From Planctomycetota bacterium (GTDB lineage Bacteria > Planctomycetota > MHYJ01 > JACPRB01), in NCBI GenBank assembly GCA_035309205.1, contig DATGFI010000637.1:1-27234 (forward strand): 27,234 nucleotides of DNA. The letters are read 5' to 3'. The position numbers were made by a program, and so were the translations under genes. Of this stretch, positions 1,546 through 4,958 are shown piece after piece (within the stretch, counting starts at the first letter, position 1; each line of letters opens with the position of its first letter). Below the pieces are notes generated by a model, which was given only the letters and a program-made list of their open reading frames with translations, had not been told where the DNA came from and did not search any database.

Positions 1546-1585
1546 ACCGTCCGGCGGATCGATTCCGCCGGACGGTTTTTTGTTT
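1546..1585 (+). terminator. Rho-independent terminator of parB
   Basis: 13-bp perfect stem ACCGTCCGGCGGA / TCCGCCGGACGGT with loop TCGAT, followed by TTTTTGTTT, 21 nt after the parB stop. Confidence 0.88.
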
Positions 1586-2265: not shown

Positions 2266-2281
2266 TGTTCCACGTGGAACA
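2266..2281. promoter_or_regulatory. parS site (isolated, perfect)
   Basis: TGTTCCACGTGGAACA, the canonical chromosomal parS palindrome; it extends to 18 bp with T/A flanks (2265-2282). Confidence 0.92.
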
Positions 2282-2283
2282 AT

Positions 2284-2685
2284 TCATTGGGAGGGCTGTG
2301 AAGGATGCCCGGCCGCCCTGAGCCAGGTCTCCGCTTCCGCGGCCGTACGGAAGACTCGCGTTTCCCAACCGGGGATTCCGACCAGCATCTCCCACATTCG
2401 CGACAACCCGAACAACTCATCCTTCGGGGCGACGATCGCGATGGCTGTCCGGGGAATCAGGCGCATCAGGCGCTTGTCGACTTCGCTCAGGCGGCGTACG
2501 TCGTCGGCGCTCACTTCTACCTTCGTCACCTGGTCGAAGAGCACGAGGGTGAGTCGGACGTCGCGTATATCGTTACCGCATTTCACGAGCTTCCGGGTGG
2601 CGTCGATGATTTCGGGCGCGGTCAGAACTCCGCTGCCGGTGAAGACGAGGAGACTGCCTTCGTTTCGCAGTTCGGTGGTATACAC
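2284..2685 (-). CDS. STAS/SEC14 (SpoIIAA-like) domain protein, 133 aa
   Basis: GTG start at 2685 preceded by GGAGG. Sequence ...TGSGVLTAPEII...LVLFDQVTKVEVSADDVRRL...RTAIAIVAPKDELFGLSRMWEML...TRVFRTAAEAETWL matches the 'A.V....FGL.RM......VF....EA..WL' SpoIIAA-like pattern. Confidence 0.68.
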   Translation of the reverse strand: MYTTELRNEGSLLVFTGSGVLTAPEIIDATRKLVKCGNDIRDVRLTLVLFDQVTKVEVSADDVRRLSEVDKRLMRLIPRTAIAIVAPKDELFGLSRMWEMLVGIPGWETRVFRTAAEAETWLRAAGHPSQPSQ

Positions 2686-3261
2686 CCTGATCCTCCCGCT
2701 CCCCGGTCGCCGGGAATCAGGATACCTACCTCGGGTACCCGCTTCAACAACGGCGACGGATCGACGGAGCTGTCGTCCCACCTCTCAGGACGAAGAGGCT
2801 CCATGCACTGGAACACTCTTCGCGGCAGATCACCTTGGTAATGCCGCACCGATCTTGGAATCGATGCATTGCTGCGGATGGGAGAACAACAGCCAGGGAT
2901 TGCATTTCCTTCTCAGTCGAACGGGGTTTTCCTGTTAGGCGAACCTGCCCTTCTCACGATCTCGTCACATCCAGTTGGGAACGAGCCCTGCGATGCAACC
3001 TTCGCAGAGATTGACGATTTCATGTGTCCACTGAAGAAGTCGGGACGCAGTCCCGATCTTCGTTCCTGGGCTCCGATTGATGCACCCTTTCCAACCGATT
3101 CCGCCCCACCGGCCCGATCTCGGGGATTTCGATCGACTTCTTAGAACTCTCCGGCTCGATGCTGCGATCGGCTGACATCGGCATTCAGGATCGGAAGGGG
3201 AAGGAGGCTTGGCAGTCGCTGAACCGCGGAGCTTCCGAAGGAGAGGGGGTTGGAGGCGGGA

Positions 3262-3277
3262 TGTTCTCTGTGGAACA
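3262..3277. promoter_or_regulatory. parS-like site, 3 mismatches
   Basis: TGTTCTCTGTGGAACA. Confidence 0.5.
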
Positions 3278-3354
3278 GCGGGCGGGATGGAAGCGGACAA
3301 GAACAACTCGCTGAGCCGGGGAACTCCAGAAGAAGTGGCGGTGGGGGGGCGGAA

Positions 3355-3370
3355 TGTTCCACGTGGAACA
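3355..3370. promoter_or_regulatory. parS site, perfect
   Basis: TGTTCCACGTGGAACA. Confidence 0.92.
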
Positions 3371-3446
3371 TCGAGCGGGATGGAAGCGGGCAAGGACAGC
3401 TCGCTGAGCCGGGGAACTCCCGAAGAAGTGGCGGTGGGGGGCGGGA

Positions 3447-3462
3447 TGTTCCACGTGGAACA
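3447..3462. promoter_or_regulatory. parS site, perfect
   Basis: TGTTCCACGTGGAACA within the 20-bp palindrome GATGTTCCACGTGGAACATC (3445-3464). Confidence 0.92.
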
Positions 3463-3542
3463 TCGAGCAGGATGGAAGCGGGCAAGGACAACTTGCTTGC
3501 TGAGCCAGGGGGCTCCCGAAGGCGAGGAGGTTGGGGGCGGAA

Positions 3543-3558
3543 TGTTCCCTGTGGAACA
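3543..3558. promoter_or_regulatory. parS-like site, 2 mismatches
   Basis: TGTTCCCTGTGGAACA. Confidence 0.6.
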
Positions 3559-3633
3559 TCGGCCGGGTGGGGCGAGTTACGAACAACTCGCTAAGCCGGA
3601 GAGCTCCCGAAGGAGACCGGGTTGGGGACGGGA

Positions 3634-3649
3634 TGTTCCACGTGGAACA
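3634..3649. promoter_or_regulatory. parS site, perfect
   Basis: TGTTCCACGTGGAACA within the 20-bp palindrome at 3632-3651. Confidence 0.92.
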
Positions 3650-3725
3650 TCGAGCGGGATGGAAACGGGCAAGGACAGCTCGCTGAGCCAGGGGGCTCCC
3701 GAAGGAGACCGGGTTGGGGGCGGGA

Positions 3726-3741
3726 TGTTCCCCGTGGAACA
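3726..3741. promoter_or_regulatory. parS-like site, 1 mismatch
   Basis: TGTTCCCCGTGGAACA. Confidence 0.75.
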
Positions 3742-3817
3742 TCGGGCGGGGTGGGGCGAGTTACGAACAACTCGCTAAGCCGGGGAGCTCCCGAAGGAGA
3801 CCGTGTTGGGGACGGGA

Positions 3818-3833
3818 GGTTCCACGTGGAATA
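3818..3833. promoter_or_regulatory. parS-like site, 2 mismatches at outer positions
   Basis: GGTTCCACGTGGAATA. Confidence 0.72.
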
Positions 3834-3850
3834 ACAGACTGCGGGGACTC

Positions 3851-4291
3851 TTATTTTTTCTTCGCGCCGGGGACCTGCTTGATGCGGACCGCCGTGTCGC
3901 GGAAGATCTTGGGATGGGAGGAGCTCTTATCGGGCTCGGGCTGCTTGCCGCCTTTCCACGGGCTCGACAGGAAGTAGTCGAACGGGAAGATCTCGTGACT
4001 GTACTTCCCAAGCGCGCGCATGAACCCGTTGGCGTGGATGTTCAGCCAGCCAAAATTGGTCTTGATGTAGATATCGACGTCGTCGCCTCCCTGAGGAAAC
4101 GACTTCACGACCAAACCCAGATGTTCGGATCCGTCGGCGATTCGGACCACGGCGGAGATGAGTCCCACGTCCTCGCCCGCGAAGCCGACCGATTCTTTGA
4201 CGTTGGGATTCGGTTCGCCGTCCTGGCCGGGCTCGATGATCCAGACCTTTCCGGCCAGCACATCCTCGGCGGTAATCTCGTTCAGCTTCAT
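3851..4291 (-). CDS. Hypothetical protein (146 aa)
   Basis: ATG at 4291 overlaps the region just past the nth stop. Globular-looking composition (MKLNEITAEDVLAGKVWIIEP...) and GC3-biased codons; no family recognised. Confidence 0.68.
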   Translation of the reverse strand: MKLNEITAEDVLAGKVWIIEPGQDGEPNPNVKESVGFAGEDVGLISAVVRIADGSEHLGLVVKSFPQGGDDVDIYIKTNFGWLNIHANGFMRALGKYSHEIFPFDYFLSSPWKGGKQPEPDKSSSHPKIFRDTAVRIKQVPGAKKK

Positions 4292-4304
4292 AGGTTCCCC
4301 GACG

Positions 4305-4958
4305 TTACGCAATCTTTCCCGCCGACGGACACTCCCCGGCGATCGGGCACTCTCCGCACTTCGGCTTCCGCGCGGCACAAATTCGGCGGCCGTGCCAGAT
4401 CAGCCGATGGGAGAATGTGATCCACTCCTCCATCGGCAGAAGCTTCATCAGGTCTTGCTCAATTTTCTTCGGATCGTCCTCGCGCGTCAACTGAAGTCTG
4501 CGGGAGATCCGATGGACGTGAGTATCGACCACGACTCCCGAAGCTTTGTGGAACCAGGTCCCGAGGACGACGTTCGCTGTCTTTCGCGCGACGCCCGGCA
4601 GCTCCAGGAGCTCCTCCATGGTTGACGGCACTTGCCCGTCGTGCTTCTCGACGATCATCTTCGCCGCACCCTGGATGCTCTTTGCCTTGTTGCGATAGAA
4701 GCCCGTGGATCGGATGTCCTCCTCGAGGGCCTTGATATCGGCTTCGGCGAAATCCCTCGCGGTCCGGTACTTCTTGAAAAGCGCCGCCGTCACAATGTTC
4801 ACCCGGTGATCAGTGCACTGCGCGGAAAGGATCGTCGCCACGAGCAGCTCCAGCGCGCTGCGATGGACGAGCGCGCACGTTGCGTCGCCGTAAACGCGGG
4901 CGAGCGTGCGGAGGATCTTCGTGAGCCTCTCAGGCGTTGAGGATTTCGAGGACTTCAT
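4305..4958 (-). CDS. nth: Endonuclease III
   Basis: LLVATILSAQCTD, HhH LPGVARKTANVVL, VVDTHVHR and the 4Fe-4S motif CAARKPKCGECPIAGEC. Start placed at the ATG at 4958, which overlaps the polX end. Confidence 0.96.
   Translation of the reverse strand: MKSSKSSTPERLTKILRTLARVYGDATCALVHRSALELLVATILSAQCTDHRVNIVTAALFKKYRTARDFAEADIKALEEDIRSTGFYRNKAKSIQGAAKMIVEKHDGQVPSTMEELLELPGVARKTANVVLGTWFHKASGVVVDTHVHRISRRLQLTREDDPKKIEQDLMKLLPMEEWITFSHRLIWHGRRICAARKPKCGECPIAGECPSAGKIA

Follow-up and report, generated by a model that had tools for sequence, protein, structure and literature searches.

What is the 92-bp tandem repeat that follows parB in a Planctomycetota bacterium, and what could a chromosome do with it? 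The repeat lies on contig DATGFI010000637.1 of assembly GCA_035309205.1 (27,234 nucleotides, analysed as a whole and hereafter called the window), where seven head-to-tail units each end in a 16-bp parS core. We conclude that the array is probably the centromere of this chromosome, amplified locally into a multi-site platform for ParB loading in the manner of sopC on plasmid F. The coordinates of the array, its cores and its neighbours are collected in Table 1.

Tandem Repeats Finder reports a single array at 3216–3831 (period 92, 6.7 copies, 80% matches, score 691). An nhmmer profile built from the unit extends this slightly, recovering exactly seven units between 3188 and 3833 (E values of 1e-23 to 2e-18) and no further unit left of 3188. 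The first unit is decayed, scoring 63.8 bits vs 73–81 for the others. Scanning the window with the parS pattern TGTTNCACGTGNAACA at up to three mismatches returns all seven cores plus a perfect site at 2266, outside the array: four perfect sites and four with one to three mismatches, eight matches against 0.27 expected, a number reached in none of 100 shuffles. Core-to-core spacings are 93, 92, 96, 91, 92 and 92 bp, placing 7 sites in 0.65 kb of array, or 8 in 1.57 kb when the 2266 site is counted. The spacers are purine-rich, and the plus-strand GC skew across the array is 0.33. A preliminary description of this DNA, made from its letters, had placed the seven cores where the pattern scan finds them, with the same mismatch counts, and had noted spacings of 91–96 bp, repeated DNA between the cores and a decayed left end; Tandem Repeats Finder and the unit profile agree, and the 2266 site is an addition.

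Table 1 Features of the array, its surroundings and the independent contigs that cover it.
Feature	Position in window	Strand	Description
parB, canonical chromosomal ParB, 284 aa	670..1524	+	ParB_N 2.5e-35, HTH_ParB 9.9e-33, ParB_C 9.6e-07 (Pfam)
Intrinsic-terminator-like hairpin ending the parB transcript	1546..1576	+	13-bp stem with 10 GC pairs, then a T run
Isolated perfect parS, TGTTCCACGTGGAACA	2266..2281	.	directly beyond the stop codon of the minus-strand gene 2284-2685
Small gene, possibly SpoIIAA/STAS-like (lead only)	2284..2685	-	between the lone parS and the array
Array	3188..3833	+	seven units, 91-96 bp long; in each, a purine-rich spacer (75-80 bp) precedes a 16-bp parS core
parS core 1, TGTTCTCTGTGGAACA	3262..3277	.	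3 central mismatches; in the decayed first unit
parS core 2	3355..3370	.	perfect
parS core 3	3447..3462	.	perfect
parS core 4, TGTTCCCTGTGGAACA	3543..3558	.	2 mismatches, one of them A-to-C at half-site position 6
parS core 5	3634..3649	.	perfect
parS core 6, TGTTCCCCGTGGAACA	3726..3741	.	1 mismatch, A-to-C at half-site position 6
parS core 7, GGTTCCACGTGGAATA	3818..3833	.	2 outer mismatches
Higher-order repeat, two 184-187-bp dimers (3463-3649, 3650-3833)	3463..3833	+	89.9% identity between dimers
Conserved gene, 3' end abutting the array	3851..4378	-	start likely near 4291; coding GC3 (GC at third codon positions) 0.78
Run X1 pieces	2800-3336, 3307-3383, 3356-3429, 3570-3662, 3635-3783, 3754-4300		k-mer contigs
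Run X2 pieces	3116-3336, 3307-3429, 3485-3661		k-mer contigs

The units are organized at a second level, with pairwise divergences that range from 7% to 39%. Each of the two dimers combines an A-type spacer and a variant core with a B-type spacer and a good core, and the dimers share 75–77% identity with the unit pair that precedes them. Since units 2 and 3 are 91% identical, the dimers 90% identical and unit 1 only 61–66% identical to the rest, the array grew stepwise, by at least one monomer and at least one dimer duplication, with an old, decaying left edge. The same unit and dimer identities back the earlier proposal that tandem duplication built the array with one parS per unit.

In pairwise comparison the cores diverge by a mean of 0.119 and the spacers by 0.264, and no other 16-column window of the unit is as little diverged as the core. 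Purifying selection on parS would fit this pattern, though with only seven related units the test is weak. A second stretch of low divergence (0.16–0.19) lies in the spacer around GCTGAGCC...GGAGCTCCCGAAGG and in some units includes a 10-bp palindrome. Three of the seven cores, namely those that are centrally mutated, carry an A-to-C change at half-site position 6, a base that, together with one other, tells parS apart from the Noc site (PMC7383237). In every variant core the change affects one half only, and G is kept at position 1. Given that one-sidedness, and given that two of the three trace to a single mutation copied with the dimer, we read these cores as weakened parS and not as sites for another protein. 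An interleaved arrangement of parS and Noc palindromes was considered and set aside, as no core combines A1 with C6 on both halves.

The window encodes a canonical ParB with all three ParB domains. It carries the CTPase motifs GERRWRA and ENIQR, with Caulobacter ParB (6T1F, 6e-50) and B. subtilis Spo0J (6SDK) as best solved relatives, and the array lies 1.66 kb downstream of the gene, close to the 1.7 kb first proposed. Sites with at most one mismatch are confined in the assembly to this contig, save a single one-mismatch site on contig C495; the scan finds apparently no other cluster, so that this is the main parS cluster of the assembly, as had been suspected. In the congeners, too, all parS sit at the equivalent locus, which is chromosomal by synteny with a 328-kb contig of one of them (G003).

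The array was also compared within the genus. The nearest public relative is a Planctomycetota soil metagenome-assembled genome (MAG). Both parB and the gene block downstream are retained in each of the six other species, at 69–81% DNA identity. The interval between the two varies, from ~150 bp in G003 to 1.9 kb in G001 and 2.3 kb in the window. At the equivalent spot the six congeners have one to three parS and no 92-bp repeat, bearing out the expectation that unit number would differ among relatives; because of this, we take the array as a species-level amplification. In G001, the nearest relative, the conserved block begins at L018:5389 (window position 3819) and a parS lies at L018:5388. 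Judged by this synteny, core 7 is the positional equivalent of the G001 parS that abuts the downstream block. A further G001 parS (L018:4812) occupies the position equivalent to the lone 2266 site.

Two congeners show rearrangements of their own at this locus. At the G006 locus (L017:4773-5092, on G006:C120), 70 nt from the 3' end of parB recur in direct orientation with 87% identity, the two copies being separated by 140 bp, and three perfect parS are spaced by 166 and 39 bp. In G003 (L016:5019-5129; G003:C2:142018-142128), two parS flank a perfect 66-bp palindrome (33 + 33 nt, no spacer), whose centre TGTTCC|GGAACA resembles parS without the central ACGT: a different, inverted route to parS multiplication. 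These sequences mark the locus as duplication-prone within the genus.

Several other classes of element were tried for the repeat and rejected. Units of unequal length (91–96 bp, with a period of 92 that is not a multiple of 3), flat codon-position GC in both open reading frames (ORFs) that span the array, and no Pfam match for these or other local ORFs together mean that the array is not coding, as the preliminary description had held; genuine genes of the window have GC fractions of 0.65/0.40/0.78 at codon positions 1/2/3. It is not a CRISPR (clustered regularly interspaced short palindromic repeats) array, since the entire 92-bp unit, spacer included, is repeated and an Rfam scan over the whole window finds no family. 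A dispersed repeat or mobile element is contradicted by the 76-bp spacer, which within the assembly is confined to the array, and by the relatives, which match the unit profile at the 16-bp core only. No G-quadruplex (G4) motif occurs within the array on the G-rich strand, spacer hairpins are weak (z of +0.6 to −2.9) and not a conserved feature, and helical phasing offers no simple same-face arrangement, 92 bp corresponding to 8.76 turns. JGI metagenome contigs were scanned twice for versions of the array with a different number of units; no contig had more than one unit-type match, and the matches there are attributable to chance because 79 of 80 loci scanned lack any parS.

How might such an array arise and act? 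An ancestral parS would have been located between parB and the convergent gene downstream. Successive rounds of slippage or unequal recombination would have copied it along with ~76 bp of adjoining sequence, monomers first and a 184-bp dimer later, the outcome being seven head-to-tail units. Each intact parS would bind a dimer of the neighbouring ParB and catalyse its cytidine triphosphate (CTP)-dependent closure into a sliding clamp. With four or five good sites in 0.6 kb and another 0.95 kb away, the rate of clamp loading would rise roughly in proportion to site number, and the clustered sites would nucleate one large partition complex, as the 43-bp sopC repeats do on plasmid F. We infer ParB binding, the dosage effect and any selective advantage of extra copies; for binding and dosage, the grounds are the conserved motif and protein, an electrophoretic mobility shift assay (EMSA) with the Myxococcus xanthus protein and single-molecule work. 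In the latter, additional parS copies on artificial multi-parS DNA gave faster ParB loading and stronger condensation in vitro, and DNAs with 7, 13 or 26 copies condensed where those with 1, 2 or 4 did not (PMC8299390). A high-capacity nucleation or condensate platform, as first suggested, is supported solely by this in-vitro work with artificial DNA, and the suggestion was overstated. Three of the seven cores are changed at the parS/Noc specificity base.

Several observations weigh against an amplified centromere. No parA adjoins this parB; the gene upstream of it is divergent and encodes an ABC-2 permease. ParA-type ATPases are found singly on contigs C574 and C173, away from parB and parS. 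(A parB without adjacent parA is likewise seen in G107, G104 and G120.) Proximity of the locus to the origin is not demonstrated: dnaA lies on a separate contig, and in the 328-kb contig of G003 the GC skew is uniformly positive and does not switch sign between −141 kb and +186 kb relative to the locus. On the ground of this uniform skew we rejected an origin at the parS locus itself in this genus. The cores with the position-6 change may be poor ParB sites. The core–spacer contrast comes from seven related units only, and sister species manage with one to three parS. In model systems one sopC repeat suffices (PMC3177203), as is reported of one parS (PMC4368675). The extra copies may or may not be adaptive.

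Three other explanations deserve weighing, the first being that a short-read assembler mis-expanded the repeat or joined it chimerically. Since the window is one entire 27-kb contig from a fragmented MAG (66% complete, 797 contigs), an artefact had to be considered, and the 619-bp contig of G088 that holds little besides a parS cluster suggests that such arrays can break assemblies. Here the units differ by enough to be told apart individually, and two public sequencing runs, one from a soil study (2017) and the other from a mine study (2024), also contain the stretch (Logan contigs). The array is covered by independent k-mer contigs of both runs, none of which has more than one mismatch; they reproduce unit-specific sequence and five of the six junctions, leaving only 3430–3484 without a long bridging piece. 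Depth of unit-specific pieces is close to that of the flanks, and about double for a 32-mer common to two units; pieces from the two runs show no deletion joints. We take the array and its unit order to be real, which answers the doubt raised at the outset and makes misassembly extremely improbable, with some reserve as to the exact copy number. The repeats might instead serve a different factor, either a ParB paralogue reading the CCCGTG and CCTGTG cores or a regulator bound to the spacer block, making the array a mixed or regulatory platform for the flanking genes. Genomes of the genus do encode four ParB_N-domain proteins each (one, divergent, beside dnaA and one on C571), and the second low-divergence stretch with its occasional palindrome could be such a target. 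We regard this as very unlikely: cores altered on one side with G1 retained are not palindromes of another specificity, two of them stem from one mutation copied by dimer duplication, the spacer hairpins are weak, and neither the relatives nor the rest of the genome contain a homologue of the spacer. No parS accompanies the other ParB-domain paralogues or the ParA genes at their loci.

Harder to separate from an amplified centromere is a neutral history, in which the array is a by-product of duplication-prone DNA after parB, one or two sites do the work, the remaining units are decaying passengers and copy number has no function. The direct repeat in G006 and the palindrome in G003 are further duplications at the same spot, the array is absent from all six congeners, unit 1 has drifted far from the others and three cores are mutated at the specificity base. 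The sopC precedent is also compatible, its copy number of 3–17 among relatives having been called unimportant and a single repeat sufficient (PMC3177203). Against these stand cores that are about half as diverged as the spacers, three of them perfect in units that differ by 7–39%, and perfect sites set in unrelated spacers elsewhere in the phylum (G107). The difficulty is that perfect sites would be bound, and would load ParB, in either case, even as passengers. On balance we judge a purely neutral array unlikely, if the most credible of the three.

Dense parS clusters recur in the phylum. Across a sample of 401 Planctomycetota genomes, in which cluster counts are lower bounds, two perfect parS lie 76–106 bp apart in 12 genomes, that of the window included, and three perfect parS at 28–58-bp spacing occur in six. 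Combined, the searches give 13 genomes (12 besides this one), five of them with at least five clustered sites. The most extreme is G374, a closed 9.2-Mb genome with 24–26 parS in 1.1 kb directly upstream of parA–parB (L035:10082-11200; G374:C1:8050081-8051199), built on a 177-bp repeat of 91% identity. The GC skew flips 90 kb away from this array, at ~7.96 Mb, where a second, weaker DnaA-like gene is found; the best DnaA match is at 5.35 Mb. G231 has nine parS, including a 63-bp repeat of 4.3 copies (90%), and G107 has eight perfect parS upstream of parB in non-repetitive DNA, showing that a multiplicity of sites can be maintained as such.

Like the window array, the clusters of G374, G231, G107, G088, G256, G314 and G418 use the perfect palindrome, in 3 to 24–26 copies within 0.1–1.1 kb, and those of G374 and G231 are likewise tandem repeats. 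They differ in position: in seven of seven loci examined (a set without G088 and G418) the cluster sits immediately upstream, either of parAB or of a parB that has no parA beside it, whereas the window array is downstream. They also belong to other families of the phylum, and their different unit lengths and unrelated spacers point to independent origins. The G088 cluster (L032; G088:C15) comprises five perfect parS spaced by 91, 94, 139 and 123 bp along nearly the whole 619-bp contig; it probably broke the assembly, and the true array may be longer. Separately, a metagenome contig (Ga0326735_1006425; L055:1196-1339) has four parS within ~145 bp at spacings of 47, 35 and 46, a chance find among pattern matches.

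Among known systems, the nearest chromosomal parallel is M. xanthus, whose cluster of 22 parS in 3.05 kb (22–24 over some 3 kb) lies 4 kb upstream of parAB and 35 kb from oriC; there ParB binds both the cluster and a single site in EMSA (Iniesta 2014, PMC3899335). Both bacteria place parS at seven or more per kb beside par genes on a large, GC-rich chromosome, and the motifs are nearly identical (TGTTCCACGTGGAACG, that is TGTTCCACGTGGAAC(A/G), in M. xanthus vs ...AACA in the window). The window array differs in being downstream of an orphan parB and in having 7 + 1 sites. It is a regular 92-bp satellite with repeated spacers; the comparison with the M. xanthus cluster covers site count, span, consensus and position.

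The architecture is closest to sopC of plasmid F, in which 12 direct 43-bp repeats each contain a 16-bp inverted repeat bound by SopB and the end repeats are degenerate (PMC3177203). The two share head-to-tail repeats with one ParB-family palindrome per unit, a position downstream of a ParB-family gene, a copy number that varies among relatives and degenerate ends. Relatives of sopC were found only on enterobacterial plasmids (PMC3177203), whereas this array is chromosomal; its unit is 92 bp rather than 43 bp, its motif is canonical chromosomal parS rather than TGGGACC-PuPy-GGTCCCA, and sopC relies on the type Ia protein SopB. Because motif, protein type and setting all differ, the array resembles sopC in architecture but belongs to the chromosomal parS class and not to the sopC family. 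With the parS sets of B. subtilis, Caulobacter crescentus and P. aeruginosa it shares the same 16-bp motif and a CTPase ParB of the same kind. Those sites stand in unrelated sequence contexts and are spread over kilobases to hundreds of kilobases, none of them described as a periodic array. In Caulobacter at least five parS cluster near ori beside parAB (PMC5815017), and another report speaks of 'tandem parS sequences' at the locus (PMC4368675).

In the literature covered, which did not include the survey of Livny et al. 2007, we found no description of a regular, satellite-like chromosomal parS array, no account of parS in Planctomycetota and no parS cluster downstream of an orphan parB. Dense chromosomal clusters are nonetheless already known, which makes the array a good example of an established type of system. 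The initial view that a regular, dense array is unusual for a chromosome holds only in part, with 22 sites in 3 kb in M. xanthus and clusters recurring among Planctomycetota.

The interest of the locus is that a chromosomal centromere can adopt the repeat-array form usually linked to plasmids such as F, in a little-studied phylum, many of whose members divide without FtsZ. Such arrays arise quickly by local duplication, sister species ranging from one to eight sites. The natural series of 1, 2, 3, 8, 9 and 24–26 clustered parS parallels the artificial multi-parS DNAs and would allow an in-cell test of site number; the current picture of ParABS function is unchanged. More speculatively, and with considerable doubt, Planctomycetota may repeatedly and independently build satellite-like parS arrays (7 to 24–26 copies) beside parB, with copy number a fast-evolving dial for ParB loading. 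If so, the 1, 2, 3 and 8 sites of this genus, whose parB is an orphan, would form a natural dosage series, and gain and loss of repeat units would be what tunes the strength of the centromere.

The gene that abuts the array is a constant neighbour of parS, found directly beside the site or sites in every one of the genus's seven species. Its stop codon lies 18 bp beyond the end of the array, and tblastn detects the gene in six of six congener loci at 64–80% identity. Its protein (~146–175 aa) has no match in Pfam, NCBIfam or the Atlas, where the record begins at residue 30. On the other side, ~500 bp of non-coding DNA separate the array from the small gene at 2284–2685. That gene has a G001 counterpart (tblastn, 49% identity over 124 aa, E 7e-39) and coding-type GC3 on the minus strand; it lacks a Pfam match, and its product gives an Atlas feature match of 0.95 to 'SpoIIAA family protein' clusters, the Atlas record beginning at residue 33. 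Between the terminator and the first parS, 1590–2265 (~680 bp) has no coding signal, no Rfam match and no homologue in G001, whose counterpart is ~1.3 kb of unrelated sequence. Elsewhere in the genome, with no parS nearby, a divergent ParB-like gene (L156:1505-4563, G000:C139; ParB_N 2e-13, weak HTH_ParB) stands head-to-head with dnaA, and the same pairing is repeated in G003 (contig C55).

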